A stretch of 55,830 nt of DNA from a virus (IMGVR_UViG_3300048818_000025:1-55830); one strand, 5' to 3'; counted from the stretch's first letter, positions 2,787 through 51,776 are shown. Notes: generated by a model from the letters alone, not told the origin. Numbers and translations are program-made.

Positions 2787-2788
2787 GC

Positions 2789-5345: not shown

Positions 5346-5707
5346 TGGTTGAGCAGACAGTCAGATCGGTTGCTAAGGAAATTGGCTCAGCCTTCTACGA
5401 GGAAAGCCAGCGCAGCCCAGGTTTCCGCCAAGCATTCCCAACGCTGCAAGCTTTCATGCGCGGTCAATGGTATCAACCGGACGGCTCGATTAAACTCTAT
5501 CGGCCCGGTTGGATGCACTTTGTCGATACCGCTCGTAAGCGCATTGCGCAGATGATTGGCAGCAACGGCACAAACGAATATCTGAAATACCGCATGTATG
5601 ATGCGTTGATTGAAGATCGCCAGCGGACATATCAGGCGGAAATAACCAACCGAAAGAACGTCAAGGATTTGCCGCAAGGCGTTTTGAATAGGAGGCTAGA
5701 TGGCTAA
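5345..5707 (+). CDS. Hypothetical protein
   Basis: ORF with GAGG RBS, overlapping neighbours. Confidence 0.65.
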   Translation: MVEQTVRSVAKEIGSAFYEESQRSPGFRQAFPTLQAFMRGQWYQPDGSIKLYRPGWMHFVDTARKRIAQMIGSNGTNEYLKYRMYDALIEDRQRTYQAEITNRKNVKDLPQGVLNRRLDG

Positions 5708-5894
5708 TAAACTCGCAAAGCTTGCTGGCATTAAATCCGCGCCTACGGCCATGCCGGTCAATGAGGAAATGCAATACCGAGCGCGTGAAGCCTTGCATAC
5801 CATTCATAAAGCGGCTGAGCATAAGCGCGACAAAGATTTAATGCGGCACGTCACACGGCTGGCGAAGGCGCAAGTCAAAGCAGTTTGCAAGTAA
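5700..5894 (+). CDS. Hypothetical small basic protein
   Basis: AGGAGG RBS upstream. Confidence 0.65.
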   Translation: MANKLAKLAGIKSAPTAMPVNEEMQYRAREALHTIHKAAEHKRDKDLMRHVTRLAKAQVKAVCK

Positions 5895-5942
5895 TTTAAC
5901 CAACGGTCCGGCCCGGTTGCCGTGCAATAAAGGAAACCTACG

Positions 5943-6764: not shown

Positions 6765-6943
6765 TTAAAGCATAGTAGTCTCGGCTATCTCCGAATGCGA
6801 TCCCATACCTAGCAGGACAATAAATAAAGCTAGGCGATCCGGTCCGACGCCCCGTGCTTGCTCTAACTCTCGCGATTGAGCACCGCGAAACAAACCAACG
6901 GCTTGAAACCCCGTCCCCTCCTTAAGCACAGGATTAATCCGTC

Positions 6944-8218: not shown

Positions 8219-8557
8219 ATGCGAGATCTTCGCAAAAGCCTGCCACAGACGGCACAGAACGACCGCAACAAATTCCCTGACTACAAATATCAGCCATACC
8301 CCAAGATGATGACCAAAATCGTCGGGGACAAAAAAGTCCCTTATCTCAACGCTTCCGGTCAGCCCGTGATTGTAAACGACGCGACCGAGGAAGCTCAGTT
8401 CAAGGCTAAGCATGGCGTGGCTGTAGATGCAGAGCCGCAGGCCAAAACGGTTGCGGTTGAAACAAAACCCGTAACGCTTGCCGCCATTGCTTCCACGGAA
8501 GCCCCGGCCAAACGCAAATACACGAAACGCGCACTTCCGGCTGACCTTCCTGCATGA
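8219..8557 (+). CDS. Hypothetical protein (post-capsid gene)
   Basis: AGGAG RBS; YQPYPKM motif. Confidence 0.7.
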   Translation: MRDLRKSLPQTAQNDRNKFPDYKYQPYPKMMTKIVGDKKVPYLNASGQPVIVNDATEEAQFKAKHGVAVDAEPQAKTVAVETKPVTLAAIASTEAPAKRKYTKRALPADLPA

Positions 8558-27393: not shown

Positions 27394-27726
27394 CTAATTA
27401 TTCAGGTCTAGCCCTAAAACTTTCCGCATTTCGGGTGACAGATGCTTTGCGGCGTCTTGGCCTGACGGGCTACGCGCCCATTCGTCGCTTTCCTCTTTCG
27501 TCGCGTCAAACTCGCCGTTGGCAACGCGGGTCGCAAATTTGGTGAGGCCAGCAGCCGTCAATTCGGAATGGAGTTGCGTGATAGGACAGGCGTAGGTATC
27601 GGCATAATCATCAAACTCGCCAGTCTCGGCACGTTTCGCAAACGCTTCATACTGATCGCGTTTCCAGTTGACGCTCTCCACGCCAACCTTGCGAAGCTCT
27701 GCCGCTAGTTTATCGCGTGTTCGCAT
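27394..27726 (-). CDS. Hypothetical protein
   Basis: 110-aa ORF with GGAG RBS; ends AAT-TAG-GAAC. Confidence 0.65.
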   Translation of the reverse strand: MRTRDKLAAELRKVGVESVNWKRDQYEAFAKRAETGEFDDYADTYACPITQLHSELTAAGLTKFATRVANGEFDATKEESDEWARSPSGQDAAKHLSPEMRKVLGLDLNN

Positions 27727-27904
27727 TATGATGCTCCAGTTTTTCGATTGCCGCGTTTAATTGATCTATCGCCCATTCCGGCACGTCATATTCCCCAAGC
27801 GCCCAACGGCGTGACGTGCGCTCATTCACGCCAAGAAACTTCCCGGCCTTAACTTGTGAAAGGCCGAGAAGCTTTATTGCTGCGCGGTATTGGGCTGGAG
27901 TCAC
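27710..27904 (-). CDS. XRE-like HTH regulator
   Basis: MTPAQYRAAI..LGLSQ..AG.FLGV..RTSRRW. Confidence 0.75.
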   Translation of the reverse strand: MTPAQYRAAIKLLGLSQVKAGKFLGVNERTSRRWALGEYDVPEWAIDQLNAAIEKLEHHNANTR

Positions 27905-29432: not shown

Positions 29433-29636
29433 TTGAAGCCCCTACTTGCCGGGCTGAATTGCCCTTGCAGGCATTGGTATGCCCTAGGACGCGGAATGGG
29501 TCAAGAGCTATTTTATGGTGCAGTGCAGTATTGCAGCCAAGGCCAGTTTCGGATAGATAATCCGTTCCCCCTCACAGCACAGGAGCCTAACCGAGTTTCA
29601 CATCGCAACCCCGCAACACAAATACGGAGCTACGAA

Positions 29637-30269
29637 ATGAACCCGTCTAAACTCCTTGCAATTATTTTCTGTCTCACAACTTTAGTATATGTCAGCCCTG
29701 CTGACGCAAAAAGTAAGCATTTGTCCCTTAATCACACACAACGGCACGTTTCCAACCATCGGCACCATTTAGCCAAGGCGCAGCCGTGGCAACCTAGCGG
29801 TCTATTCGATCAAGCCGCTATCGCGCCATACCCAACCGAGCAAACCCGCCAGAATCGCATTATTGCAAGCCCAATGGGGCGTCGGCATATCGCGCCGAGC
29901 CGGGGCTATGATATGGCGGAAGGGATTATAGGTCACCCGGCAGGCTGCCCGCATAGCCAGTTTTGTGGCTGCGGGGCTTCCGTACGTATATTCGGCCATC
30001 CAGTTCGCGAACTCTACCTCGCAAGCAATTGGTTCCAGTTTGCACATACCGCGCCGGGGCCTGGAATGGTCGCTGTCCGCAATCACCATGTCTTTGTGAT
30101 AGAATCGGTTAACGGCGATGGTACGGTAGTGGCTTGGGATGCAAATTCAGGTGGCCATGCCACAAGGATTCATACCGTTAGTTTATCCGGCTATTCAGTC
30201 CGCGACCCGCATAGTGCAGGCCAGACATTCTCAGCCAATCGTCATCATCGCCAAATGAGTTCGCTATGA
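29637..30269 (+). CDS. Secreted CHAP-like (Cys/His) peptidase-type protein, moron-like
   Basis: Signal peptide ending ADA; FCGCGAS...LASNW...GMVAVRNHHVFVI...DANSG. Confidence 0.65.
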   Translation: MNPSKLLAIIFCLTTLVYVSPADAKSKHLSLNHTQRHVSNHRHHLAKAQPWQPSGLFDQAAIAPYPTEQTRQNRIIASPMGRRHIAPSRGYDMAEGIIGHPAGCPHSQFCGCGASVRIFGHPVRELYLASNWFQFAHTAPGPGMVAVRNHHVFVIESVNGDGTVVAWDANSGGHATRIHTVSLSGYSVRDPHSAGQTFSANRHHRQMSSL

Positions 30270-31809: not shown

Positions 31810-32180
31810 TTCATTTCCTTAATGTCGGTGGCTATCTTCTGCATTGCTTCTAAGTCGTTTCTCGCATCCCAAAGCGCCTTGGCTATCGGTAGCGGATCAA
31901 TCCCCATATTAGACCACCAACTAAATTCCCCGGAATTGTGCTGCGCGTTTGGATATAGACGATGATGACCTGCACATAACGGTAAAATCCAACGATGATC
32001 GCGCCCATTAAGTTTTTTGTATCTAGCGTCACTAAACCGGAGGTGCGCCGCTTCTGCTTCCGCGCCGCAAATCAAACATGGGCATTGTCTGATATTCTTT
32101 ATGAACTTCCCAAACGCATCCGGCTGGCGCTTGCTTCGGCTGGTTGTTTTATCCAAACGAGAAATTACTTTACCACTCAT
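31806..32180 (-). CDS. DUF968-like putative HNH/zinc nuclease
   Basis: IRQCPCLICG...EAAHLR...ILPLC..HH...QH. Confidence 0.7.
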   Translation of the reverse strand: MSGKVISRLDKTTSRSKRQPDAFGKFIKNIRQCPCLICGAEAEAAHLRFSDARYKKLNGRDHRWILPLCAGHHRLYPNAQHNSGEFSWWSNMGIDPLPIAKALWDARNDLEAMQKIATDIKEMK

Positions 32181-32494: not shown

Positions 32495-32950
32495 TCATAT
32501 ATGCCTCCATGTCTTTCCAGTTTTAATATTGGAAATGACAGATTGAGATATATTGTATGATTTTGATATTTCTTTTTGCAATCTATTATCCAAACGAATA
32601 TCCAAAATATCCTTTGGTGTTAAAACTGCGAAATGATGATTAACCCCGCATGGGTGCGGTGGCATTTTCATTCTTTTTTTATTTCTCATATCATCCATAT
32701 TTTCTTGATGGGTGCCGAGAAATAAATGATCAACATTTACACAGAGAGGATTGTCGCATCTATGACACACAAAAAATTCTTGAGGATCACCATTCGTAAT
32801 AATCCACGCAACACGATGGGCGAGGCGATTTTTCCCATAATATGAAATTCTTCCATACCCCACATTGCTAAGTGCGCCCAACCAAATAAAGCAGCCAGAG
32901 TTTGGCTCTGGAATATATTTATTCTCAAATCTTTCAATGAGAGTTCTCAT
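32495..32950 (-). CDS. HNH homing endonuclease
   Basis: PEPNSGCFIW, AHRVAW, VCHRCDNPLCVNVDHL..GT..ENM; low GC. Confidence 0.9.
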   Translation of the reverse strand: MRTLIERFENKYIPEPNSGCFIWLGALSNVGYGRISYYGKNRLAHRVAWIITNGDPQEFFVCHRCDNPLCVNVDHLFLGTHQENMDDMRNKKRMKMPPHPCGVNHHFAVLTPKDILDIRLDNRLQKEISKSYNISQSVISNIKTGKTWRHI

Positions 32951-37387: not shown

Positions 37388-38080
37388 CGTACAATAAAAC
37401 TGCACCGCGTTACTAAGCCGGGCCGGTTGACTGCCGTCCATTGCTCAGACTTGCCGCGTACAAAATCGACGCATGGCGAAATTGGGCTTTACGATATGCC
37501 AGGTGATATTATCAAGGCCCATATAGAAAACGGGTGGACCTACCACAGCCGAATTACTGTCTGGAAAGACCCTGTAGTGGAAATGCAGCGCACCAAGGCG
37601 CTAGGGCTGCTCTATAAGCAGCTACAGAAAGACGCTACGCGGTCTAGGCAGGGGATGCCGGACTATGTTTTGGTGTTTCGTAAGACCCCGGACGTAGAGC
37701 AGTCCAGCGACCCTGTGGGGCAGGATGCGGCCCATTTCCCGGTTGACCAGTGGCAGCGTTGGGCTTCCCCGGTTTGGATGGATATTAACCAAACCAATGT
37801 CTTGAATGTCCGTATGGCGAAAGAGGACAAAGACGAAAAGCATCTATGCCCGTTGCAATTAGATTTGATCGATCGGGCAATTTACCTTTGGACCAATCGA
37901 GACGATATTGTTCTTTCACCTTTTATGGGCATTGGGTCTGAGGGTGTCATGGCCCTTAAATGCGGGCGTAAATTTGTTGGTGCCGAGCTTAAGCAGTCCT
38001 ACTACCAGCAAGCTATCAAGAATTTAGAGTTTCAGGAATCTGAAAGTGCCGGAGGGGATTTGCTGACAGGTGCAGCGTGA
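37388..38080 (+). pseudogene. N4/N6 DNA methyltransferase, 5'-truncated
   Basis: KPGR..AVHC, WKDP, HLCPLQLD, VLSPFMGIGSEG present; catalytic SPP(F/Y) motif absent; in-frame stop at 37340. Confidence 0.7.
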
Positions 38081-38278: not shown

Positions 38279-38284
38279 GTTGGC

Positions 38285-38954
38285 CTATTTTAATAGAATT
38301 GTGAGTGCTATGGTAAACAATCCGCAAACTATGAACCATTCCGCTGCTGCGCTTTGCATATCGGCCTATTCTGACTTAAGGGCAGCGACGGCAATGCGCC
38401 TCGCTCTCACCCGGCAAGCTGGCTTGTAGCTATCCTCTTTTCGGTCGCGTAGAGGCAGGTCCGCGATCTTCTGCAACGCCTTCCGCAACCGCGTCACGGT
38501 CAAGGCTAAATGCACTATGCGTTCCTGGCGCGTCACGGCGGGGTAATCCTACTGCTTGACCTTCTCAAATCGAAGGCTGTGGAATTTAGCAAATTCGGCG
38601 ACGGCTTTCAGGTTAGGCAAGTCAACGTCCGCATTCTGCACAGCACCAGTCCAGACCTTATTCGAGCGGCCATTGCCATGCTGGTCGCAAGCGATTAGCT
38701 CGCCGCATAGGCGCTCGCCTTCATAAAACCGAACCGTTGTGCATTCTTGGCGCGGCATTGGGCTATTCCTTCAACTTTAGAAGTGCATTGAGACAAGCGT
38801 TAAGTTCAATCTCGTCGCGTTCCGTCCATGGGGCCATTCCGTAATTGAATGTGCAAACTTCTCGATCCCATGAAGCGTGGATAGTGCGCCGATTACGATC
38901 AGGTTTGCCACCAAGTAGCGTCTGCAATACAAAATATGGCGGCAGCGTAACCAT
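38285..38954 (-). CDS. Left-array genes 38285-38359, 38366-38536, 38549-38758, 38763-38954
   Basis: Each ends in TAG within a junction motif, with the next start 4-12 nt later; the two leftmost read by hand. Confidence 0.6.
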
Positions 38955-38971
38955 CGGCGGGGCCTCTATAT

Positions 38972-39307
38972 TCAACGGGTGGGTGGTGCTGGTAGCAGCA
39001 TCCAATAAGTCGGATTTACGAGGGACAGCAATTCAGCTTCAAGCGACCCCTCGTACCAGCCAGCGGGGGCGAAATCGCCGTCCTCGTCGTAGTCATGCTT
39101 TGGTAGGTCGTCGCGATACTGCGCGTGCATGGACCGCCACTTGCCGAGCGAGTTGAAAAACCCGACCAGCAACAGCCGATCCTTCGGCGCTGTCTCAATC
39201 GGTTTCCACTCGTCGCTTTTGGCTTTTCCGGGTAGCTGGCAAATATCGGCAACGTCATGATCGTGTTGCAGATGATCGCTCAGTTGTGATGCTAGCGTTT
39301 CGGTCAT
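38972..39307 (-). CDS. DUF551-like protein
   Basis: WKPIETAPKD...PTYWMLLPAPP. Confidence 0.7.
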   Translation of the reverse strand: MTETLASQLSDHLQHDHDVADICQLPGKAKSDEWKPIETAPKDRLLLVGFFNSLGKWRSMHAQYRDDLPKHDYDEDGDFAPAGWYEGSLEAELLSLVNPTYWMLLPAPPTR

Positions 39308-39317
39308 GGCTGCGGGC

Positions 39318-39780
39318 CTATTTCGCTAGGTTTTGGATTTGCGTTTCTAGGTGGCGCACATCGGCCTCGCAGCCGCACGCCTTGGCATCGGCAAGCTCTT
39401 TAGTGAGCCGATTTAGCTTGGCCTGTTTTCGGTCCTGTGCGGTCATTTTCGGGCCTATTCTAACTGATCGCGGAGGTCGCTGACGGCTTCCGCTTCCGTC
39501 TTGCCGTAGCCAATGGGGCGGCCCGGCTCATAGCCATCCTCAACCGCCGACCAATCAAACGATCTTATCGGAATTGGTGGATAAATATGGGCGGTGACTA
39601 TTTTCATGCCGCCATTTTCACCTTCGCCAAAATGGCCTGATTGGTGAGTTTGACATTCAGCTTAAGGTTATTTGTTGCGAACGATAGGGCTGCGGGAAGC
39701 GTCCAAAATCCCAATTCATCGCCCCGCTCTGAAATCTTGAGGAACCAGCAGTTGTTCCGGTAATCAATGGTGGTGGTCAT
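39318..39780 (-). CDS. Left-array genes 39318-39446, 39455-39607, 39604-39780
   Basis: Read by hand; TAGGCCCG junctions at 39318 and 39455. Confidence 0.6.
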
Positions 39781-39808
39781 TTGTGCTCTCCGTTTCCGAT
39801 AAATATAC

Positions 39809-39829
39809 AATACGCCAATTTGGCGTATT
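39809..39829 (-). promoter_or_regulatory. Perfect palindromic operator inside a leftward promoter
   Basis: AATACGCCAA-T-TTGGCGTATT between TTGCAA and TATATT, just after the HTH gene. Confidence 0.7.
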
Positions 39830-39837
39830 TGCAATAG

Positions 39838-40047
39838 CTATCTGCGCAACTTTATTGCTTTCTTTTGGAGCCTGTTTAGGGCCATCCGGTCCTTACCAAC
39901 GGCCAGCAAAACCATAGAAACGGCCAGTGGTGGGCCTTCTGAAGCCCAACGCTGGCCGCTGCGGGCGCTGGTGCCAAATAGCTCGCCTGCAGCTTCCTGG
40001 GTAAGCCCAAGGGCCTCAATACGGCTGCGGTAGGCTTCTGGCGACAC
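39838..40047 (-). CDS. XRE-like HTH regulator, homologue of 27710-27904
   Basis: MSPEAYR..IEALGLTQ..AGELFG...RSGQRW. Confidence 0.75.
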   Translation of the reverse strand: MSPEAYRSRIEALGLTQEAAGELFGTSARSGQRWASEGPPLAVSMVLLAVGKDRMALNRLQKKAIKLRR

Positions 40048-40053
40048 GGCGGC

Positions 40054-40314
40054 CTAATCTAACAGGGTTAGAGTTTCGCGGGCCTTGGTAAGACAGCCCT
40101 GCATATCGGTGTGGTGTTCGGTGATCCATTCCAGCGCATCCTTCGCCGCGACCAGCCTCATATCGCGCTCCATCACAAGATCAGCAATCTCGGCCTCGAC
40201 TTGCTTGCGCTCGGTAGCTATTGCGCCAGCGACCTGATCCCTCAACGCGCCGGAATGAGCCGCGACTATCGCGTTAGCCTTGTCAAAATCCTCGTTGTGG
40301 ATAGCTACGGGCAT
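40054..40314 (-). CDS. Hypothetical protein (array gene)
   Basis: Bounded by junction motifs on both sides. Confidence 0.6.
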   Translation of the reverse strand: MPVAIHNEDFDKANAIVAAHSGALRDQVAGAIATERKQVEAEIADLVMERDMRLVAAKDALEWITEHHTDMQGCLTKARETLTLLD

Positions 40315-40329
40315 TTCGGGCCTTATTTG

Positions 40330-40785
40330 TTAGATTGCTTCGCCAATAATCTCACGCTCAAGAGCGCCGTATTTTTCATCGTCACCGACGACTTGGCCCT
40401 TGAGCGCGACGATCCACCACCGCTCACCTTTCCACTTTGGCGGAATAAGTGTGGCGTGGAGAGTGCCTTTTTTGCAGAGGTCGAGCGGCCCAGGCGAAGT
40501 GTGAATAACGCCGGGCGCTGGCGTCTCGACTTTAACACCGCCGTTTGCCGGGGAGCCGTCCGGGTTAGACCGCCAGAACGCAATCTTGGCACCGTCCCGC
40601 GTTAGTTCGTTCATGCGTTTCTGCTGGCGCTCGTTCCACTTGGCGGCGAAGTAAGCAATACAGGACTGCCAATAGTAGCCGTCGGCGGAGCCGTCGCCGG
40701 AGCCGTAGCCGTAGCCGTAGCCGTAGCCGTCGCCGTTTGCCGGGAAGCCGTCCGGCAGCTTACCTTGCAGGACTACCGGGACCAC
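40330..40785 (-). CDS. GYG-repeat protein, paralogue of 49578-50201
   Basis: GDGYGYGYGYGSGDG; TLHATLIPPKWKGERWW shared. Confidence 0.75.
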   Translation of the reverse strand: MVPVVLQGKLPDGFPANGDGYGYGYGYGSGDGSADGYYWQSCIAYFAAKWNERQQKRMNELTRDGAKIAFWRSNPDGSPANGGVKVETPAPGVIHTSPGPLDLCKKGTLHATLIPPKWKGERWWIVALKGQVVGDDEKYGALEREIIGEAI

Positions 40786-41075
40786 GGCGCGGCCTCCCAA
40801 GCAACAGCCGCTGCGGGCGTAACTTCGGCAACGCAGGTAATATCCCGCAGTTCAATATCTGCCGCAGGCCCGACGCGAGCGCCGTCAACCGGCCCCATTG
40901 AAGCTAGGCCGAGAAAGCCCTTATTCGCAGTCGGCCACGAAATGCAGTTACGGGCGGCGCGGAGCTTAATCATCACGCCGTCAGTCTTGATCGCGTAGCC
41001 GAAGAACACGCCCCGGTGCGAGGTTGTGACCAGCACGGCGCGTTCGTTCTTTTTGCGGTTAGGGTGGTTTACCAT
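40773..41075 (-). CDS. Conserved phage protein, paralogue of 49282-49590
   Basis: RAV.VTTSHRGVFFGY...KGFLGLASMGP...GPAADIEL. Confidence 0.75.
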   Translation of the reverse strand: MVNHPNRKKNERAVLVTTSHRGVFFGYAIKTDGVMIKLRAARNCISWPTANKGFLGLASMGPVDGARVGPAADIELRDITCVAEVTPAAAVAWEAAPWSR

Positions 41076-41128
41076 CTTGGCTCCTATGCCCCTGAATGCC
41101 GAGGCGCACATTGCCCGAAGGTTCGGGC

Positions 41129-41302
41129 CTACTTTGACTTCGGTGGGGTATCGAGTTCGGTTCGCAGCGCATCCATTTCCGTCACCAGCGCCTCGATACG
41201 TTTGCGCGTGGTGCCGATGTAGGTGTCCTTGTACGTTGGCGACTTGAGGTAGTGGCGAAGGCCCTCTACCGCGTCAAACAGCACATCCGAAACCATCGCC
41301 AT
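41129..41302 (-). CDS. Small protein divergent from the recombinase
   Basis: GGGAG RBS; ends at the innermost TAGGCCCGAA junction. Confidence 0.6.
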   Translation of the reverse strand: MAMVSDVLFDAVEGLRHYLKSPTYKDTYIGTTRKRIEALVTEMDALRTELDTPPKSK

Positions 41303-41310
41303 ATCTCCCT

Positions 41311-41376
41311 GTTGACCGTATATAGGCAAAGCCTTGACAACTTGTCAATAGCCCTATACGCATAGTTGACAACTTG
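41311..41376. promoter_or_regulatory. Island central divergent promoter and candidate recombinase-binding region
   Basis: Palindrome TTGACAA-C-TTGTCAA (41334-41348); TTGACAACTTG repeated at 41334 and 41366. Confidence 0.7.
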
Positions 41377-41388
41377 ATAGGGTTCGGA

Positions 41389-42033
41389 ATGTCCACCGAT
41401 TTACTGCCAAAAGGGTTTTTAGTCGGCTATGCGAGAGTTTCCACAGAAGATCAAAAGCTCGACCTCCAGCTTGATGCACTTAGATCAGCCGGGGTGCTAC
41501 CTGATAATTTGCACGTCGAAAAAATCTCAGGCGCTTCCGCTAAACGTCCGGCTCTTGATCTTGCTATTAAAGACCTTCGCCAAGGCGATACATTGGTCGT
41601 GTGGCGCTTGGATCGTTTGGCCCGAAGTATGCGCCAACTCTACATGCGCCTCGACCAAATTTACGCAAAGGGGGCGAATTTCCGAAGCATTACGGAAGCC
41701 TTCGACTTCGGCACAGTCAGCGGCAAATTCGTCCTCGGAATCCTGGGACTTGTCGCTGAGTTTGAACGCCAGATCATCGCCCAAAGAACGTCAGCAGGCA
41801 TCGCGGCGCTCAAGTCTCGCAAGGGCAAGGAATACAAGTGGGGACGTACATTGCACATGACACCGGAGCGCGTGGCGCTCGTTGGGGACTATCTCAACGG
41901 TCGCAATGGCAAGCCACAGTTGAGCGGACCGAAGATCGCCGCGAAGCTCAAGGTTTCTACGGCCTCAATCTATGGGTATTGGAAACAGGCAGGCAAGGGC
42001 CGGTTCACTCGCCGGAAAGCTACGCCGAAATGA
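41389..42033 (+). CDS. Small serine recombinase (resolvase/invertase family)
   Basis: GYARVSTEDQ..DLQ..AL, GDTLVVWRLDRLARS, AEFER..I..RT..G; C-terminal HTH (IAAKLKVSTASIY). Confidence 0.95.
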   Translation: MSTDLLPKGFLVGYARVSTEDQKLDLQLDALRSAGVLPDNLHVEKISGASAKRPALDLAIKDLRQGDTLVVWRLDRLARSMRQLYMRLDQIYAKGANFRSITEAFDFGTVSGKFVLGILGLVAEFERQIIAQRTSAGIAALKSRKGKEYKWGRTLHMTPERVALVGDYLNGRNGKPQLSGPKIAAKLKVSTASIYGYWKQAGKGRFTRRKATPK

Positions 42034-42551
42034 CCGAAAGGCTTTACGTGTACGTCGCAGAAAGCTCCAAGGGCTTAATCAAGATCGGCTTCTCGGCTAA
42101 CCCGAAACGCCGCGTGAAGTATTTGAGCGGAACCGTGCTTCATGCACACCGTCCGGTTACTTTCTTGCGAGCTAAGCGCATGGACGCAATAGCTGCATAC
42201 AAGGTGGAAAAGTTCACTCAGTACCTTCTAGCCGAACACGCAGCCCCTATGACTTACCCCGGCCTTGGGCCTTCGATGGAGTGGTTTCAATGCTCACAGG
42301 AAGCCGCCTTTAAGGCCCTAAGAACCGCCGTTCGTTGCGTGCAGAACGCAACAGAGTATTTCGGGCATGATCGGTTTAACTGGCGGCGAGCCGTGCCGTT
42401 TATAAAGGCACGAAAAGGATTGGTGTTGCCGCATAAATTCGACATGTGGCTTACTCGGCAAATCGAACTATCTAAGGGCGAGCGCCTTGATGCGATGATT
42501 GATGTTCAACGTAAGATGCACAATCTATGCGCTACGGCGCAGAACAATTAG
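42030..42551 (+). CDS. GIY-YIG / T5orf172-like protein
   Basis: YVYV......IKIGFS.NP..R...L and EWF motifs; ATGA-coupled to the recombinase. Confidence 0.75.
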   Translation: MTERLYVYVAESSKGLIKIGFSANPKRRVKYLSGTVLHAHRPVTFLRAKRMDAIAAYKVEKFTQYLLAEHAAPMTYPGLGPSMEWFQCSQEAAFKALRTAVRCVQNATEYFGHDRFNWRRAVPFIKARKGLVLPHKFDMWLTRQIELSKGERLDAMIDVQRKMHNLCATAQNN

Positions 42552-42560
42552 GAGACTGGC

Positions 42561-44008
42561 GTGGCCGACGTGAAGCTCACAGAACTCGAACCGCAATGGC
42601 TCACGCGGGACGGCAAGCGCGTGGGCGTGATATTTCGCAATCCGTCGCCAGAGCATCGGAAGTGGCGGGTGACTTGCTTCGCTGCGCCGACGCCGAATGA
42701 CGATCAAGAGGCAATCGTTCACGCGGCTGTCGGGGAGACGGATATGTGGCAGGGCTGCAATCCGGCGTCGGGCTGGAAATTTGAAGGCGGTATAGACGGC
42801 GCTACATTCGAGACGCTGACAATCACGCCTTCGCTCGATGGTGGTCAGCATTGGTGGCACGGATTTGTTACCGGCGGGGTTTGCAGGTGAGCGACAAGTG
42901 CCACATGTGTGGGAGGCCGCCCTCGGAACATTCTTGGGACACCCGCTCCATATGCAACTTCTATCTCGGCGCGGCCGGGTCAAATCTCACGAAAGACCAG
43001 GAGGACGCAGTCTATGCCGCATATCTCGGCATCTGCTTTCTTCAAACGATGTGCCGCAGAGTGAACCTGAAACTTGGTGAGCAGCGTGCACAAGAATTGC
43101 TTACCGAATTAGGCGTCGCCTTCCCGTTCATTCCCGAACGGGTCGGTTTGTCCGCCTTACGTTGAATATGCAGGAGTTTAGCGTGACGATCAAAGAGGCA
43201 ATAGAAATTCTCACGGAAGAAGTGGTTGCGCGCAAGACGAGCCCGAATAGTTGTTCGGAAGAAGTTACTCAGGCAATTGAAACGCTTTTGTCCGTCATCA
43301 CACAGAAAGCTTAGGAGAATTTTGCTGTGACCGTAGCAACCGATTTTAAGCGCGCCTACTTGCAAGAAAACAAACGCGCCAACTATGCCGAGGGCGCGCT
43401 GCGCAACATCGTTCTGGCATGGAACAAACTCAAGCCCGGCAATTACTCCAAGGACGTATGGGAAACGTGGCTGGAAGAAACTCTCAAGCCTGCCGTAGTG
43501 GCTGGCGAGGTTGCGCTGACTGTTCTAAATAATCAGCGAAAGAATTAGGAGTTTTTAGATGGCGTGGACCGCAAAGCAGAAGGCCGCGTTCAAAAAGGAA
43601 CGGCGGAATTTCAGCGCCAAGACCTATCTCAAGGTCAAGAAGGAATTTGACCGGCAACGCAAGCTGCCGCGCAACGCGCCTGTCTGGTACATGAACAAGA
43701 CTGAATGGAACGCAATATCGTCGGCGCTCAAGATTGCTGCCGATCACTCTAAATAATTAGGAGCCGAGGCGGTGTACGAGAAAATGAGTGCCAGCGAGAT
43801 TGTTTTGCAAGCCCTCATTTGGGGCGAGGAAAGCATTACCGAAATGATAAACGGCACCCATGAATCAGAACCGCACCGCGCCGAATTGGTCGAGTTGCGA
43901 AGGCAGATGCGAGTTTACAGGAAGCGGCGTTACGGCAAGCCGGTTGATCCCTTCGCAAACGCCAAGCTTGTCAGCGCCTTTGATCTGCCCATTACGAAAG
44001 AGGGATAA
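42561..44008 (+). CDS. Right-array genes 42561-42890, 42887-43165, 43183-43314, 43327-43548, 43559-43756, 43772-44008
   Basis: Short ORFs separated by (T)TAGGAG junctions; the first has an LT.TPS....WHG motif. Confidence 0.65.
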
Positions 44009-44009
44009 C

Positions 44010-44792
44010 GTGGTTTCTCCGGTTCCAAAGCACCTACGCGCCGATGACGAGTACGACGCTATCGCTGGCGAGCTGCGAGATCATCGGTATGGCCTAGAGG
44101 TTGACCGATCAAAGGGAGTTGACCTTCCCGGCATCGGCGCGCACCGCGCCAAGTACGCGCCCGGCCTTGCAACGGCACTCTTGGCGCTGGCCGGGACCGA
44201 TGACGTTGGCGACCCGATGTGCGGGACCGGGACGCTTGGACGAGAAACCGGGAAGCTAGTTGCCCTGAACGACATTGATTACGGCATGTGGAATTTTTTG
44301 GAGCCTCTTGGGAAAAATGGGTGCCAAGTCACGTTTGGTCCCGCTACCGAGATTAAGTGGCGGCGCGAAGTCTGCATCTTTTCGCCGCCGTATTATCCGA
44401 AGGCCGATCGCTGCAAGCCGTGCGCTCACAATGACGCGAGGCGCGGCCCGGTCGTCGGCTTCCGTGATTCCTATTCTGGCGACCATCCTCAATTCGTCGG
44501 CAACCCCGGCGGCGTGAACGCTATTCTAAAATATCGCCAGCAGATGACCGCGATCTATGACCACCTTAAAACGGTCTGCGACCGCATGATTGTAGTCACA
44601 AAAAACTGGACGCGGCTTGGCGTGGAAATGCGCCTCGACCTCGACACGATATTGATGGCGCAATCGGTCGGCTGGTACTGCGAAGGGCGGAACGGATTTG
44701 AGCCGTCGCCGTCTTTGTGGTCGCGCTACAATAAGCAACGCGGCGGCGGTGTCACCGTCGAAGATGTGTTGATGTTCTCGAAACCCCGTTGA
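44010..44792 (+). CDS. SAM-dependent (N4/N6-type) DNA methyltransferase-like protein
   Basis: DPMCGTGT SAM-binding motif, NDID, then FSPPYY catalytic motif. Confidence 0.75.
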   Translation: MVSPVPKHLRADDEYDAIAGELRDHRYGLEVDRSKGVDLPGIGAHRAKYAPGLATALLALAGTDDVGDPMCGTGTLGRETGKLVALNDIDYGMWNFLEPLGKNGCQVTFGPATEIKWRREVCIFSPPYYPKADRCKPCAHNDARRGPVVGFRDSYSGDHPQFVGNPGGVNAILKYRQQMTAIYDHLKTVCDRMIVVTKNWTRLGVEMRLDLDTILMAQSVGWYCEGRNGFEPSPSLWSRYNKQRGGGVTVEDVLMFSKPR

Positions 44793-44809
44793 AGAATTAG
44801 GAGAATTTA

Positions 44810-44998
44810 ATGCGCTGGCGTCACAAGAAGCGCGGAACGACTTACGAGGAAATTGGTCGCGCCAAGCTCCAAGCCTCTGACACTGGCGGTATGGGCGACC
44901 ATCATCCGATGGTAGTTTATCGTGGTGAGGATGGTCAGCTTTGGGTGCGGCCAGAAGATGAATTTGAAGATGGCCGCTTCGAGCGGCTGGTGGATTAG
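44810..44998 (+). CDS. DUF1653-like small protein
   Basis: WRHKKRG..Y...MVVYR...GQLWVRP..EF.DGRFE. Confidence 0.7.
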   Translation: MRWRHKKRGTTYEEIGRAKLQASDTGGMGDHHPMVVYRGEDGQLWVRPEDEFEDGRFERLVD

Positions 44999-45007
44999 GA
45001 GTTTGAA

Positions 45008-45649
45008 ATGGCTACCAACACCCCGTTCTATCCCGGCGATACTCACTGGTCCTACGTCAAGCGTTGGGCGTGGCTGATGTGGGTGCAGTATTGGTCGCCG
45101 CTCGGGTCGAGCGTCTCGACGCAGTATGTTTGTGCAGTTACCAAACCAAAGGAACTGAAAAATGAAATACTTGAACGACAAGTGCCAGCGTTGTGCCAAC
45201 AGCCGAGGACTTCACGCCGCCGTCATCAAGACTAATACGCAACAGCGATGGCCGCTCGTGTGCGAAGCGTTCAAAGAGGCTGATGAGAATTAGGAGAATG
45301 AAACATGCGCGTCGAATTTACTTGGTCTAAGTGGTGCGTCCTATTCACACAGCAGCCGACGCCATCCGGTCTTGATCGGTGGTTTACAATCGGTCCGGCC
45401 CATTTTCGGTGGACCGCCAAGCAACTTCGCCCGCTGTCATAGGCGGTCAGTCCCCGTCGCCCGGTGAAGAAAGCCGGGCACCGTTTGAATTTAGAGGAGT
45501 TTGCCGTGGTCATAGAAAACATTGGCCTTGGCTTCCACTGGCATAAAATCAGACACGCCTATAAAGAATTTTACGATATGTGGTCAGGATATTGTAGCGG
45601 ACCAAGTGAGTGCGTGTGGATTGTGCCGGGAACGGCACTAGAGGACTAG
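45008..45649 (+). CDS. Right-array genes 45008-45235, 45162-45293, 45305-45442, 45506-45649
   Basis: Partly read by hand; TAGG junctions; the last is a paralogue of 51618-51776. Confidence 0.55.
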
Positions 45650-45846
45650 GAACGACCATGCCGATCACGTCAGAGCAGCGCGAAATTCGCAATCTGAAAA
45701 AACACCTTCGCGGGCTGACGGCGCAGGTCATGGAGACGATTGCTAGGATAGACAGGATTATGAAAATTCCGGAAGGACCATTGCGCGGCAAGATGATTGC
45801 CGAGGCGACGAACGCGCTGGAAATGACAAATCATGCTTATCCGGTT

Positions 45847-46917
45847 TCAACATGCAGGCTCTAGCGGTTGATGTGTTCCATGACTGACATTCGGGTGCGT
45901 CCACTCGCCGCTATACAGCCCGTCATAGGTCGGGCTTTCGCCGTTTGCGCCGATGCCCAAGAGCGAGCGGAAGGCATTGAATGGGTAGAAGCGGCGATTG
46001 AACCGGAAGGTAAATTCGTTGAGGTAGGCTTGCAGGTGCTTCGGCTCGACGCGCCCGTGGTGCGTGCCTTGCAGCCAAGCTTTGAGGTTGCTGAAAACAA
46101 GGTGAACGATAGGCAGGTATTCTTCGGCAACATCGGGCTTGTTGGACTCGACCACGGGCATGTGAGCGTAGCCGCGATCAGCAAGCGAGTTGTAGCCGCC
46201 CCAAGCGTCGGTAACGACCATGTTGGACGTAGGATCAACCGCAGCCTCTACAAAGCCGCACAGCGACTTGGCGGTACGGTCGGGGGCGATTTCCAGCCTG
46301 AGACGGCCAGCATATCGGCCACCGCGCCGCATGGGCTTGTCGCCCTTCTTGGCCGGGCGCTGCCGAACCTCGACGGCGGCGACTACGAGCGTCTTGTCGT
46401 CGGCATGGGGACCTTTGCCCTCGCCCCGCGTCACGCCGCCGATGTAGGTTTCGTCAATCTCGATATGGTCGCGGCCCGAAATGCTGCCACCGATCCGGTC
46501 GCGGTCTTGGCGCACCATACCGGCTCGCAGCTTGTGCAGGATGCCGAAGGCGGTTTCGTATCGGGTAAGGCCAAGCTGGCGCTGAAATTGAACGGCGGAC
46601 AGGCCGGGCGTCATGCTGGAAATGAGGTAAGCCCCCCAAAACCAAGTCGTCAGCGGCGTATGGGTGCGTTCCATGACCGTGCCGACCGTCAGGGAGGTTT
46701 GCTTACGGCATTTGCGGCAGGCCACCACATGCGGACGCGCCGCAGAACAGTACAGCGGCTCGCCAATGGCCTTGCAGTGCGGGCAGCGGAAGCCGTCAGG
46801 CCATTTTGCGCCTTCCAGATAACGAGCGCAGGCCGCGTCGTCAGGGAACAGCTTTTGGAACTGCGGCAGGGACTTGGGGAATGGCAGTTTTTCCCATTGG
46901 TGAATGTCTTGGATCAT
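45847..46917 (-). CDS. IS1595-family DDE transposase
   Basis: Zn ribbon CPHC..CRKC; IEIDETYIGG, VVTD, HLQAYLNEFTFRFNRR. Confidence 0.95.
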   Translation of the reverse strand: MIQDIHQWEKLPFPKSLPQFQKLFPDDAACARYLEGAKWPDGFRCPHCKAIGEPLYCSAARPHVVACRKCRKQTSLTVGTVMERTHTPLTTWFWGAYLISSMTPGLSAVQFQRQLGLTRYETAFGILHKLRAGMVRQDRDRIGGSISGRDHIEIDETYIGGVTRGEGKGPHADDKTLVVAAVEVRQRPAKKGDKPMRRGGRYAGRLRLEIAPDRTAKSLCGFVEAAVDPTSNMVVTDAWGGYNSLADRGYAHMPVVESNKPDVAEEYLPIVHLVFSNLKAWLQGTHHGRVEPKHLQAYLNEFTFRFNRRFYPFNAFRSLLGIGANGESPTYDGLYSGEWTHPNVSHGTHQPLEPAC

Positions 46918-46920
46918 GGC

Positions 46921-47181
46921 CTATTTTCCTGTTTTGGCCTGATAAGCGTCGGCGGCGTCGGACGGGTTGTATCCAAGGTCTTGATATTCAGCCAAGCCGC
47001 GCCGTTCCTCAGTTGTGATGACGTGGCCGGGGTTACGGTAGTCCAAAAGCGCCTCGCAAGCATCGCCGACCCACAACATGCGCTTCATGCTGAGTCCGCT
47101 CATGCGGACGTTCCCGAGCTTGTTGACCATATCCTGATGCGCCGGGCCGTGCCCCTCATGGTGTTTCGAGGTACTTGCCAC
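46921..47181 (-). CDS. IS passenger gene
   Basis: Inside the TIRs, upstream of and co-oriented with the transposase. Confidence 0.65.
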   Translation of the reverse strand: MASTSKHHEGHGPAHQDMVNKLGNVRMSGLSMKRMLWVGDACEALLDYRNPGHVITTEERRGLAEYQDLGYNPSDAADAYQAKTGK

Positions 47182-47182
47182 G

Positions 47183-47479
47183 TTAGCCTACCTTTCCGGC
47201 AGGATCGGCTATGCGATCCTTTAGCTCGCCCGGTTCAATCGTGGAGTCCTCATGGCTCCAACTATGGCCTGCCCAGTCCGCGACATACCATTTTGTGCCG
47301 TCGCCCGGCACGGTGCGGTCGAGCTTTACCATCGAGCCGTCATGCGAGACAAAAACCTGTTCGGGCGCTAGTTCATCGCGTCGAGCGTACCAGTCGGTCG
47401 TTTTTCCTACGGTATCCACGCCCGTTTGATGGGCTATGCCGCCTCGCGGATCGCTTCCGTGTCCTTTTGCGTCTTTCAT
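47183..47479 (-). CDS. IS passenger gene
   Basis: GGGAG RBS; starts MKDAKGHGSDP. Confidence 0.7.
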   Translation of the reverse strand: MKDAKGHGSDPRGGIAHQTGVDTVGKTTDWYARRDELAPEQVFVSHDGSMVKLDRTVPGDGTKWYVADWAGHSWSHEDSTIEPGELKDRIADPAGKVG

Positions 47480-47813
47480 GTTCAACTCCCGTTAACTACG
47501 AGCCTTTCGGCCTCTGCAATCTATATAGCACTAGTAGGTGCATGTGTCAAGCGGATAAGCATGTGACAAATGACGGCGCGCGGTACTTTGGCCTTGGCGT
47601 AGATTTCCGCAAGGACCGCAAGCCGGGCCGAGACAACGCACCGCCGAAATTTCGTGAAATGCGCGGTATCTTGAAGTCACAATAGGAGTAATCCGTCGAT
47701 TATAACCACAGACAGCGCATCGGCGGCTAAGTGAGTTTGTCTTGCGGTGTTAATGGTCTTTACATCTATTAGTAGCGATTGTGCGGCGTAAAAAACTACG
47801 CTAGAAAAAATCA

Positions 47814-48195
47814 GCGCCGCGCAGGAGGTCTATTTCCTGGCGGCGCAGACCCGAATTGATGCTTGGCGGCTGAAACTCGGGCCAATGACTTAAGAACTAT
47901 ATAGCCTGCGGGCTAGTTCCGGTCAAATCATAAAATCCATGCCGCCAGAAGCCGCCAGAAGGCCCGGGATGCATTTATTTGCATTCTAGGCTCTCGTAGC
48001 AGGGGCGGAACGTGCAGGGTGTAGGGGCGAGGCCCCAACTTGGATGTGCGGCTACGGAAAAGGCCAAGTATGGCTGACGGGACGCTCGGCTCCATTGAGC
48101 AGAATCCTAAGCCACTTCCTCTTGCCTTCCATTGGTTTCCAATGGGGGTAAGGGGGGTGTGGCTTCCGAACACTCTCACCATTGAGCAGGATTAA
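47814..48195 (+). ncRNA. Candidate structured non-coding element upstream of the HNH gene
   Basis: Several stems; long hairpin 48109-48165 relying on G-U pairs; no convincing + strand ORF. Confidence 0.35.
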
Positions 48196-48201
48196 GTAAA
48201 G

Positions 48202-48843
48202 ATGAAAGCTAGAAATAAGAAAGAGGCTGCGATAGTAGTTATTACTAATGCAGCTTTAGTTAATAAAATTGTTGGCGTTAATTTTTCCGATAAATGTAAA
48301 TTATTGGCTCAAAAATACTGTTTTGAATGTCCGATAGTATTAGCTTCAAATCACGCGACCGGAATGGTTACAGCGGATGTAATTGTTTTTGCAACAATGA
48401 TTGCTAAGGAAATCCAGAAGGATTTTCCAAGTTGGTGTCGGCGAGCTTTAGATCATTTAGAAGATAAGGTGGCAAAGCCTTCGACAAAGAGAAAAATAAG
48501 ATTTTTTGAAAAATCAACTAATCCAAATGCGGCCCCAAGCCAAAAGAAAATTGATAATTTTTATGGGTCTTGGGAATGGAAAAGATTGCGGTATGATTTT
48601 ATAAAAAAGAATATCAGAAAATGTAAATGCTGCGGTGCCACACCTGATGATGGCATATCAATTAACGTCGATCATATTAAGCCAATTAGGCATTATTGGC
48701 ATTTGCGCACCAAGGAATACAATCTCCAAGTACTTTGTGCAGATTGCAATATGGGAAAAGGAAGCCGCGATGAGACGGACTGGAGGGGAGATAGGATAGT
48801 CTCTCTTGACTTAATTCGGGAACAACTAAAACCAAGGGGATAA
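48202..48843 (+). CDS. HNH endonuclease
   Basis: FY.SWEWKRLRY...CKCCG...VDHIKP...NLQVLC.DCN.GKG. Confidence 0.88.
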   Translation: MKARNKKEAAIVVITNAALVNKIVGVNFSDKCKLLAQKYCFECPIVLASNHATGMVTADVIVFATMIAKEIQKDFPSWCRRALDHLEDKVAKPSTKRKIRFFEKSTNPNAAPSQKKIDNFYGSWEWKRLRYDFIKKNIRKCKCCGATPDDGISINVDHIKPIRHYWHLRTKEYNLQVLCADCNMGKGSRDETDWRGDRIVSLDLIREQLKPRG

Positions 48844-49281: not shown

Positions 49282-49590
49282 ATGAATACTCACCCAAATC
49301 GTACTAAGCGAACTGGCGAACGTGCCGTTATGGTCACGACTTCGCATCGTGGCGTTTTCTTTGGCTATGCCGCCAAAACGGACGGCGCGATCATCAAACT
49401 GCGGCGCGCCCGCAACTGCATCTATTGGGGAACCGATAATAAGGGTTTCCTGGGCCTCGCCTCAATGGGACCGACCAGCACAGCGAAGATCGGTCCCGCA
49501 GCCGATATTGAGCTTTGCGATATTACTTGCGTGGCTGAGTGTTCCGAAGAAGCCACGAAGGCCTGGGAGACGGCCCCATGGAGCCGGTAA
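49282..49590 (+). CDS. Conserved phage protein, paralogue of 40773-41075
   Basis: Near-colinear similarity. Confidence 0.75.
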   Translation: MNTHPNRTKRTGERAVMVTTSHRGVFFGYAAKTDGAIIKLRRARNCIYWGTDNKGFLGLASMGPTSTAKIGPAADIELCDITCVAECSEEATKAWETAPWSR

Positions 49591-50201
49591 TCCTTAAAGG
49601 AGACGCCGCGAAAGCGGCGGCAATTCTTGGCTATGGCTCTGGCTCTGGCTATGGCGATGGCTCTGGCGATGGCTATGGCTCTGGCGATGGCTATGGCTAT
49701 GGCTCTGGCTATGGCGATGGCTCTGGCTATGGCTCTGGCTCTGGCGATGGCTATGGCTCTGGCGATGGCTATGGCTATGGCTCTGGCTATGGCTATGGCT
49801 ATGGCGATGGCTCTGGCGATGGCTATGGCTCTGGCGATGGCTATGGCTCTGGCTCTTATTGGTCCTCCTGTATTGCTTACTTTGCTTCCAAGTGGACTGA
49901 CGCTGATCGCGCTCGATTTACCGCAGCTAAAAAATTAAAAACCAAGATCGCTATCTGGCGATCAACCGATAAAGGCTTGCCGTCGAATGGTGGTGGCAAG
50001 ATTGAACCAGCGGCTCCCGGCGTTATCCATACTGCACCTGGACCGCTCAATCTATGCCACAAAGACACACTCCACGCCACCCTTATTCCTCCGAAATGGA
50101 AAGGCGAGCGGTGGTGGGTTGTGGCACTCCACGGCGAAGTCATTGGTGACGATGAAAAGTATGGCTGCCTGAAACGAGAAATTATTGGCGAATGCCTGTA
50201 A
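49578..50201 (+). CDS. GYG/GSG/GDG-repeat protein
   Basis: Long Gly-X repeat; C-terminus shared with 40330-40785. Confidence 0.75.
   Translation: MEPVILKGDAAKAAAILGYGSGSGYGDGSGDGYGSGDGYGYGSGYGDGSGYGSGSGDGYGSGDGYGYGSGYGYGYGDGSGDGYGSGDGYGSGSYWSSCIAYFASKWTDADRARFTAAKKLKTKIAIWRSTDKGLPSNGGGKIEPAAPGVIHTAPGPLNLCHKDTLHATLIPPKWKGERWWVVALHGEVIGDDEKYGCLKREIIGECL
49629..49856 (+). repeat. Coding hexamer tandem repeat GGC(TAT/TCT/GAT)
   Basis: Directly visible. Confidence 0.95.
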
Positions 50202-50800: not shown

Positions 50801-51776
50801 ATGAAAATCGAAAACGACACCGCTACCTTTTCTTCTGGCCGCACAGCATATGCGAATCGTGGGATTATTGGGCTATCGCCAGAATTAAATCTTTCCGAAG
50901 GCTATGACGGCGGATTTTGCGCTTGGCCTATTCCTGAATGGTGGAGTGACGAAGAAAAGCGCGCCTGTTTGCAATCTTCTGATATGATTGAGCTTGCAGA
51001 TTACATGATTTCTCAATGGGGAAAGTTCAAAGAATTAGTTTCCGAGAAAGCCAATGATGTCCTGTAATCCCGCAACAACGCCAATAGTTTAGCATGAACA
51101 TCACCAATATCCACGAAGGCCGAATGCCAGCGATGCTTCTAATGGTGTTTCGCCAGATTGAACGCTTAGCGCAGGGCTGCACTCTCGCAACGAAACTACC
51201 TATCTCGCCAGACTACTTTGGCGAGGCTTGCGCGGAATGCAAAGGACACGGCTGGATTAAGAAGGAGCGAGATACACATGCCAAGGCTTTGCCTTGTAAG
51301 GCTTGTGGGAGCGATGGATGGTCTAAATGATGTTCTGAGCGACGAATCATTCCAACGATCCTAGAGCCAATTCCGCGAAGCCTAAGGGCATCTTTAGGAC
51401 ACGTCGCAATGTCATCGAGGGAAATAGCAGCCCTCAATCGCAATCAGCCCGGCGATCATGAAATTCTGCAAGAAGTTGTGGAAATCTGCCAAGCCGAAGA
51501 TATGGCCGACGCAATGAGAACCTGGAAATTCAAGCCGCGAAAGGTTACGGCTAAGACAGCAAAGCTTGCGCCAAGTCACAGGCTAGCTATGAAAAGCGCC
51601 ATTCGCGCGGGGAAATAATGGTCGTAGAAAACATCGGCCTTGGTTTTCATTGGCATAAAATTCGACATAGCTACCAAGAGTTTTATGATCGATGGTCGGG
51701 ACATTGTAGCGGATGTAACGAATGTGTTTGGATTGTTCCTGAAACAGTTTTAGAAAACGAGGAATCTAAACTTTGA
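50801..51776 (+). CDS. Small hypothetical genes 50801-51067, 51094-51330 (CxxCxGxG), 51409-51618, 51618-51776
   Basis: Consecutive ORFs; the last read by hand. Confidence 0.55.

Follow-up and report, generated by a model that had tools for sequence, protein, structure and literature searches.

The 55,830-bp sequence IMGVR_UViG_3300048818_000025, here called the window (the whole stretch of DNA analysed, one complete virus record), contains between positions 38282 and 47688 a block of small genes arranged in two outward-reading arrays around a central divergent promoter region and a gene for a small serine recombinase. Based on all analyses, it was concluded, with a probability of roughly 0.6, that the block is a hyperplastic accessory-gene module, whose short arm-specific junction motifs, (A)ATAGGCC(CG) on the left and (A)ATTAGGAG on the right, serve primarily for expression and are preferred exchange points, the recombinase being a dispensable passenger. 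An initial annotation of this DNA had proposed an integron-like gene-capture element driven by the recombinase. The recombinase, the two arms and the arm-specific motif were found as it described them, but the near-universal occurrence of the motif at gene boundaries and the status of 45832-47563 as rightward cassettes were not.

Gene coordinates were taken from plain lists of open reading frames (ORFs) and from a crude codon-usage caller of our own, and the block was curated by eye. The curated set comprised 27 gene ends in the block (13 left, 14 right) and 78 ends elsewhere in the phage. The 13 leftward genes agreed with the earlier count, whereas 14 instead of about 15 rightward genes were obtained. 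An exact TAGGCC or TAGGAG was present at 14/27 block gene ends (left 6/13, right 8/14) versus 1/78 outside (Fisher p = 2.8e-9), so the motif was not equally frequent throughout the genome. Any TAGG was recorded at 17/27 block ends and at 6/78 of the others, and the 10/27 boundaries of the block without TAGG were ATGA or GTGA overlaps or carried ordinary spacers and ribosome sites. The motif pattern is real and covers about half to two thirds of the junctions; its reported presence at nearly every boundary was overstated.

The left-arm motif was found on the minus strand within 38282-41131, with exact TAGGCC at 41126-41131, 40051-40056, 39452-39457, 39315-39320, 38363-38368 and 38282-38287, and with the variants TAAGGCCC near 40323, TAGAGGCCCC near 38960 and TAGCCC near 38761. 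The right-arm motif occupied the plus strand within 42549-47688, with TAGGAG starting at 42549, 43312, 43546, 43758, 44798, 44996, 45291 and 47683. The difference between the arms that had been claimed was confirmed by counts over the window: seven of the nine TTAGGAG matches were on the plus strand at 42548-45296, i.e. within 2.7 kb (binomial 2e-10), and five of the eight AATAGGCC matches (1.63 expected) were on the minus strand within the block. As had also been reported, TAG was a minority stop among the late genes (8/30) and was followed by G in none of those eight cases. A suppressor-tRNA or recoding account of the TAG excess was rejected, because no tRNA (ARAGORN) and no Rfam family was found (0 of each); the late ORFs were open under code 11.

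Alignment of 56 TAGGAG and 24 TAGGCC junctions showed information in the ~3-5 bases before TAG only and none 3' of the hexamer. The 9-11-nt motif was non-palindromic and had no conserved second half-site, and two or three frames were often stopped just ahead of it. The sequence GTTCGC, which lies 24 nt ahead of some TAGGAG sites, was discarded as a further element since it occurred at 5/56 sites only and in frame. A promoter and terminator scan gave 5 promoter-like sites versus 6.3 expected and 15 terminator-like sites versus 13.3 expected.

Relatives of the recombinase were collected from 19 viral, 50 genome and 80 metagenome loci (numbered with the prefix L), and among them likeness at the DNA level was restricted to the recombinase gene and the region upstream of it. 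At least two coding-strand TAGGAG sites within 6 kb downstream were present in 15 of the 22 distinct contigs with a recombinase of at least 56% identity (13 sites in L007), and many of those contigs also had upstream TAGGCC on the opposite strand. The other seven included L157, L158 and L160, which were too short to judge, L162 with none in ~860 nt, L008 with none, and L009 and L010 with one junction-type site each. In whole records, the AATAGGAG matches located beside the recombinase amounted to 8/9, 6/7, 3/5, 2/3 and 1/1. The density of junction-type TAGGAG was 2.58 per 10 kb in L002-L015, a set that includes four overlapping pieces of one phage, versus 0.16 in 80 unrelated phage loci and 0.22 in the 50 genome loci. 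In an automatic tally, where some arms were shortened by ORF miscalls and the window right arm ended after one gene, TAGGAG was found at 35/92 right-arm ends and TAGGCC at 13/59 left-arm ends, versus 14/390 and 4/390 elsewhere. The arms were nearly pure by the same tally (TAGGCC at 0/92 right-arm ends and TAGGAG at 1/59 left-arm ends). The recombinases of L009 and L010 were 63-64% identical to that of the window and their junctions mixed TGAGGAG, TGAGGAA and TAGGAG; in more distant relatives the motif grades into ordinary junctions where a stop codon overlaps a Shine−Dalgarno (SD) sequence.

The cassette genes differed between the relatives. When 13 loci were compared all-against-all, nearly every cassette was a singleton, a tblastn search with the window proteins found no homologue of the other block genes in the 19 viral loci except one in L005, and no gene was common to all modules. 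The T5orf172 nuclease was rejected as a common partner, being present in 0/5 other module-bearing records. The window major head and portal proteins had no match in five module-bearing records, three of them complete, in a search without a positive control and hence weak; if this negative holds, the module may sit in phages with different structural genes. The module-bearing phages came from peat, lake and permafrost metagenomes. Three-codon mini-ORFs (Met-Glu-Ile-stop, Met-Arg-Arg-stop) were noticed between motifs at L157 ~640-690, L158 ~360-410 and L007 ~8520-8545, those of L157 and L158 being located in left-arm leaders; these could represent what is left of lost cassettes, or else serve as relay ORFs in coupling.

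Cassette content and order vary precisely at the motif. A sequencing run from a different study (X7) yielded one 2,474-nt contig, 97-100% identical, in which window pieces with 0-6 differences each followed the order 44994-45289, 43311-43540, 45286-45823 and 47564-47713, i.e. the single-gene cassette 43327-43548 was placed at the 45291 junction. The two cassette joints fell within shared stretches of the motif, 10 and 11 letters long (AGAATTAGGAG(AAT)); the match started at the 44996 motif, the preceding 1,184 nt being unlike the window. A 245-nt contig of another run (X9) corresponded to exactly one cassette, 43312-43551. No relatives of cassette 43327-43548 were found in the viral contigs. 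Further, L003 and L015, with recombinase genes 71% identical and unrelated flanks, shared one 74-aa left-arm cassette at 97% identity, and the homology extended from the TAG(G/C)C..ATG junction to right after the stop codon; a search for relatives of the L003 cassette returned only these two. In L007, L157, L158 and L160 the recombinase and promoter were 88-95% alike. On the right side L007, L157 and L160 became unalignable right after ATATAGGAG (the L158 contig ends inside the recombinase), and on the left side L007, L157 and L158 diverged after (T/C)AGGCCG in the leader. Because the alignments stop there, the conserved platform ends at the first motif on each side. The expected change of gene content and order at the motif was thus observed in X7, in L003/L015 and in the L007 group, with the exception of L006/L153 described below.

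It was proposed that a conserved back-to-back promoter pair would drive the two outward arrays, whose small and tightly packed genes have no promoters of their own; they are probably early genes, mostly ORFans with some DNA methyltransferases. The TAG stop of one gene would be fused with the ribosome-binding region of the next. In the right arm of the window, TAGGAG was located 5-8 nt ahead of ATG or GTG, so that a stop codon merges into a canonical ribosome site; AGGAG at this distance would be a strong site, and the TAGGCC of the left arm a weak one. Such fusion of stop and start would couple translation along each arm, with a distinct level per arm. The junctions would double as points of cassette replacement, movement and loss between co-infecting relatives, since the final 7-11 nt are common to nearly all cassettes. 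The agent would be general microhomology-guided or phage-recombinase-assisted recombination, together with selection for intact genes. Phage recombination systems of the exonuclease kind are known to tolerate short homology, and an exonuclease-like protein is encoded in the window (PHROG 1.1e-5).

That the serine recombinase is probably not the driver was indicated by arrays found apart from it. When viral contigs were scanned for one extended junction, 12 loci were obtained, 3 of them in already known contigs. Two of the new loci, L237 and L244, carried full two-armed TAGGAG/TAGGCC arrays; their genomes, of 71,465 and 86,655 bp, are complete and have terminal repeats. A search for PF00239 in the whole L237 and L244 records gave no match, whereas the recombinase was recovered from two control records in this way. 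The central region of L237 aligned with the promoter region of the window, the TTGACA palindrome, the TATAT box and the CAACAGGGAGA leader being common to both, and a T5orf172-domain gene occupied the first place, at the position of the recombinase. In L008, the recombinase was 73% identical and no arrays were present. It was concluded that the recombinase is a frequent but dispensable first right-arm gene that is not required for the arrays. Hence, of the proposal of gene-capture arrays, the variation of content and order at the motif was retained, as was the two-armed arrangement of most close recombinase relatives (15/22 had arrays), but not the recombinase as driver.

It is nevertheless conceivable, though unlikely, that the junction motifs are recombination sites of a phage-borne two-armed platform served by the Gin-like recombinase, in cis or in trans from co-infecting relatives, which would cut and rejoin at the motif and reinsert excised circles. 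The AG or CC after TAGG would then be the crossover overlap, keeping the arms orthogonal and preventing inversion. This fit is neat, the arms are nearly pure, and orthogonality by the central dinucleotide is a known property of serine recombinases. The recombinase with the promoter region is also the only conserved gene of the module over ~20 contigs, the catalytic residues are intact, on either side the platform extends exactly to the first motif, and the cassettes are co-oriented and, by consensus scan, promoterless. However, the known small serine recombinases need dyad sites of ~26-34 bp with accessory sites or an enhancer, and the motif is short and asymmetric without 3' information, hence without a second half-site. 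The two complete array-bearing phages lacking any Resolvase domain and the recombinase of L008 without arrays argue against it as well, and the left arm of L156 mixes TAGGAG and TAGGCC. No circle, deletion or inversion joint at the motif was seen in contigs of the source sample, which is weak evidence since contigs lose rare variants. If true, phages would possess a counterpart of the integron based on a serine recombinase, through which small accessory genes, possibly anti-defence ones, are traded among them.

Several observations weigh against an expression motif that merely doubles as an exchange point. Integron-like arrays without an integrase exist, so the arrays without recombinase leave some room for its action in trans. 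The motif holds more than a ribosome site requires, the bases before TAG being conserved, and TAG was kept where it was not the stop: at 43758 and 44798 the upstream gene ends in TAA or TGA, yet the site reads AATTAGGAG. The full motif terminates both arms without a downstream gene (38282-38287 and 47683-47688), which would also suit excision and reinsertion by a recombinase. The motif has a phage-specific flavour, with T before TAGGAG in 7/8 window sites versus 2/31 in four relatives (p = 2e-5), and in many relatives the left-arm TAGG is just 3-5 nt from the start, too close for an SD sequence. A shared stretch of 7-11 nt is short for homologous recombination to be efficient. With spacers of 6-12 nt, any gene-preserving breakpoint must fall near the motif, and the coincidence of breakpoint and motif is therefore weaker evidence for motif guidance. 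Finally, L006 7675-7772 and L153 3014-3111 shared 98 nt at 100% identity with both breakpoints intragenic, this stretch being an intragenic mosaic joint inside otherwise dissimilar left-arm genes.

The last two points are those expected if the motifs are translational-coupling or ribosome-binding elements and nothing else, and random illegitimate joints survive only in the tiny spacers, onto which the surviving breakpoints would be forced. The TGAGGAG and other stop-over-SD forms of the more distant relatives agree with such an explanation, as does the proposal that the start-associated sequences (SAS) of mycobacteriophages act in translation initiation (PMC3203893). Still, it was regarded as somewhat unlikely, because random joints would not recreate a 9-11-nt motif including bases outside the SD sequence, would not preserve phage-specific flavours and would not leave full motifs closing the arms; moreover, both X7 joints lay within 10-11 shared letters.

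Conservation of the motif past the SD core and its arm specificity might alternatively reflect a target in RNA. Motifs on polycistronic mRNAs would be recognised by a phage or host factor, either an endoribonuclease or a translational repressor, setting the timing per arm, and shuffling at the motif would arise as a side effect. The sequence TAGGAGAAT was present at several window sites, and the RegB endoribonuclease of T4 is reported to cut in GGAG ribosome sites (PMC3014915). No RegB-like or other candidate factor was identified and, as stated, no gene is common to all modules; this possibility was considered very unlikely. Exchange at motifs that act primarily in expression was retained as the preferred interpretation.

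The recombinase itself (41389-42033, plus strand, 214 aa, first right-arm gene) was confirmed to be a small serine recombinase of the resolvase/invertase type: residues 12-144 matched PF00239 (2.9e-38), and the closest solved relatives were the Gin invertase (3e-33, residues 11-146) and gamma-delta resolvase (1.8e-24). The serine of its YARVSTEDQ stretch aligned with that of Gin VRVSTNDQ. The C-terminal 68 residues (147-214) gave no Pfam or PDB sequence match and were helix-turn-helix-like by eye only. The best match in cultured phages, annotated as a DNA invertase, was just 44% identical. No inverted repeats of at least 20 nt flanked the recombinase in the window or in six relatives, and a classical Gin-type invertible segment beside the gene was therefore unsupported; no strand-changing joints were present among the 15 joints listed, of 21, in read-derived contigs. 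The enzyme probably has a role of its own, which may be to resolve or invert DNA elsewhere or to bind the TTGACA repeats before its gene.

The genes diverged, as had been stated, from the 92-nt intergenic region 41297-41388, but the promoters in it were read by eye and were not listed by the consensus promoter scan. Back-to-back TTGACA boxes form the palindrome TTGACAACTTGTCAA (41335-41349). The region also contains TTGACA-N18-TATATA in the leftward direction and, directly before the recombinase start, another TTGACA/TTGATA pair (41367-41380). It was conserved in 10 relatives as well as in the recombinase-less L237. The palindrome was first considered as a half-site related to the motif; since its spacing varies between relatives, it is better explained as the back-to-back -35 boxes of the two promoters. 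The TTGACA/TTGATA repeats just before the recombinase start, which are missing in L237, may be binding sites of the enzyme.

The right arm was interrupted by a 1732-bp insertion sequence (IS) of the IS1595 family at 45832-47563 on the minus strand, recognised by Pfam, inverted repeats, target duplication and an empty site, and overlooked when this stretch was read as rightward cassettes. It contains three leftward ORFs, a transposase (45847-46917; DDE_Tnp_IS1595 3.5e-31, Zn_ribbon 3.6e-9) and two small ones (46921-47181 and 47183-47479), and the long plus-strand ORF 45868-47685 is antisense to it. The ends are 25-nt terminal inverted repeats, flanked by the 8-bp target duplication TGACAAAT at 45824-45831 and 47564-47571, and the empty site, with 45823 joined to 47564, was found in runs X7 and X9. 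The insertion is recent and later than the right arm. The interrupted gene starts at 45658 and its 3' part (47564-47688, plus strand) ends in the terminal TAGGAG; with the IS removed, the frame 45658-45823 plus 47564-47685 was open over 95 aa, a statement on length and openness only. The DDE_Tnp_IS1595 domain, zinc ribbon, terminal inverted repeats and 8-bp duplication agree with the IS1595 family, from which the element differs by its two extra small ORFs. A 638-bp element with near-identical terminal repeats (CATGCTTATCCGG...) and the look of a non-autonomous derivative was noticed in the right arm of L007 (12499-13136), and distant IS1595-type transposases were present in or beside the arrays of L005 and L237.

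The left arm (38285-41296, minus strand) comprised 13 leftward ORFs of 24-151 aa, obtained from the curated ORF lists, with gene ends at 41129, 40773, 40330, 40054, 39838, 39604, 39455, 39318, 38972, 38763, 38549, 38366 and 38285. It encodes a DUF6948 protein (40773-41075; Pfam 5.8e-20), a Gly/Tyr-repeat protein (40330-40785) and, as the last ORF, a terminal hydrophobic peptide of 24 aa (MQSAAAEWFIVCGLFTIALTILLK, 38285-38359), possibly a small membrane peptide; a Pfam family was assigned to 0/9 further left-arm ORFs. The only long intergenic gap of this arm contained a perfect 19-bp palindrome with a terminator-like hairpin (39809-39829, minus strand), with a GGAGAG ribosome site after it. This palindrome comes directly after the ORF 39838-40047, whose product appeared helix-turn-helix-like by eye, and it possibly divides the left arm into two units as an internal operator or terminator. 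The DUF6948 and Gly/Tyr-repeat pair was present twice, in the left arm (40330-41075, minus strand) and in the rightward operon outside the block (49282-50201, plus strand), the DNA of the two copies being 75% alike (40339-40589 vs 49942-50192). Further paralogous pairs were 39838-40047 with 27710-27904 and 45507-45652 with 51619-51764. Tandem 12/18-nt repeats at 49586-49904 and 40675-40735 code for Gly-Tyr/Gly-Asp runs, and in read mapping the bin 40406-40839 received enormous depth from unrelated low-complexity contigs.

The right-arm cassettes (42030-45831, plus strand; curated ORF lists and Pfam) start with a T5orf172-domain protein (42030-42551), followed by small ORFs at 42561-42890, 42887-43165, 43183-43314, 43327-43548, 43559-43756 and 43772-44008, a putative S-adenosylmethionine methyltransferase (44010-44792) and small ORFs at 44810-44998, 45008-45235, 45162-45293, 45305-45442 and 45506-45649. 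The ORFs 45008-45235 and 45162-45293 overlap, and only the latter is counted in the curated gene-end list. Pfam assigned no family to 9/10 small right-arm ORFs. Methyltransferases were also found among the cassettes of L244, namely one Dam and two cytosine-5 enzymes.

The phage carries its large terminase, portal and major head protein genes within 1398-8152 (PHROGs 6.9e-47, 1.3e-87 and 3.8e-47, respectively) and replication-type and HNH genes at the right end of the window; neither the block nor the first 25 kb had a megablast match in cultured phages. The G+C content was 54.9% for the block minus the IS and 49.6% for the remainder of the phage. Two free-standing HNH endonuclease genes (32495-32950 and 48202-48843; PHROG 1.1e-34 and 6.8e-17) are located in the non-structural half, and ~500 nt past the right arm (47690-48200) had no convincing ORF, Rfam family or tRNA. 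A 21-nt inverted repeat, 90% complementary (30465-30485/32047-32067), surrounds 1.56 kb of mixed-strand small ORFs. DNA resembling 31926-32093 was present in L005, ~3 kb from its recombinase, and homologues of 29496-30269 were within 1-5 kb of the recombinase in L002, L004, L009 and L015. The left flank gene 37496-38080 encodes a 194-aa protein that matches domains within phage methyltransferase and helicase families (PHROG 16 and 67); its 591 relatives in viral contigs are 62-84% identical and have unrelated genes beside them. An empty-site relative sought through this gene was given up: the protein is too widespread, and the closest locus, L021, was not collinear.

Phage accessory regions have the fastest turnover of new genes, often without function by annotation, and their organisation is known in few systems, such as the promoter-early stem-loop (PeSL) cassettes of T4 and the SAS. 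The module described here is conserved and portable, with one divergent promoter, two arrays and two arm-specific motifs, and single genes move exactly at the motif among near-identical genomes. It is thus tractable for studies of motif-guided gene exchange, of an SAS-like role of the motif and of the action of small serine recombinases on such sites, and the motif arrays provide a search rule for metagenome cassette pools of ORFan and methyltransferase genes. A comparable two-armed array next to a serine recombinase was not described in the open-access literature that was searched.

Integrons combine a promoter platform with adjacent co-oriented promoterless cassettes of varying content. The module shares this architecture, having a conserved platform with a putative promoter beside variable promoterless cassettes of one orientation. 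The varying content was observed; the consensus scan did not list the central promoters. It differs by its two arms, by stop-to-start gaps of 6-12 nt and by the lack of a tyrosine integrase and of attC hairpins. The initial annotation was correct on this absence: none of the 29 block ORFs scanned against Pfam belonged to an integrase family, the gaps were 0-12 nt at most junctions, and no recurrent inverted repeat was found in the window. With the Gin/Hin/Cin invertases and the Tn3/gamma-delta resolvases the recombinase shares the catalytic domain and a gene that adjoins a promoter region with repeated sites, just as tnpR adjoins res. It differs from Gin/Hin/Cin by C-terminal 68 residues unlike the Gin DNA-binding domain and by the missing flanking inverted repeats.

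The PeSL cassettes of T4-type hyperplastic regions are promoter-plus-terminator units that mediate gene shuffling (PMC2839356). The likeness consists in repeated short elements between small non-essential ORFans, at which indels and replacements occur between close relatives; here these were found at the junctions with one counter-example (L006/L153). The module junction differs in being a 9-11-nt stop/ribosome-site motif without promoter or hairpin; an early promoter and stem-loop per repeat were not seen, the junctions being too short and the scan showing no excess.

The SAS of Cluster K mycobacteriophages are the closest in form. The accessible portion of their account gives a 13-bp consensus, 5'-GGGATAGGAGCCC, located 3-7 nt before the starts of non-structural genes only, sometimes including the upstream stop, with the function described as unknown (PMC3203893). 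As far as this account shows, both are short, asymmetric, many-copy repeats that share an ATAGGAG core, keep a single orientation and lie a few nt ahead of starts, among non-structural genes only; both precede genes of unrelated families and sometimes hold the upstream stop. The right arm has the AGGAG core in a single orientation, 3-7 nt ahead of starts; TAGGCC takes its place in the left arm. The flanks differ, GGGATAGGAGCCC in SAS versus (A)A(T)TAGGAG here, so that ATAGGAG alone is common to both and the consensus is absent. The extended 17-bp inverted repeats of SAS were not seen in the module, and the host group is unrelated. Within what that account covers, the module further differs in having two arm-specific versions around one divergent promoter, and in the cassette breakpoints that were observed at its motif and are not part of the SAS account (PMC3203893).

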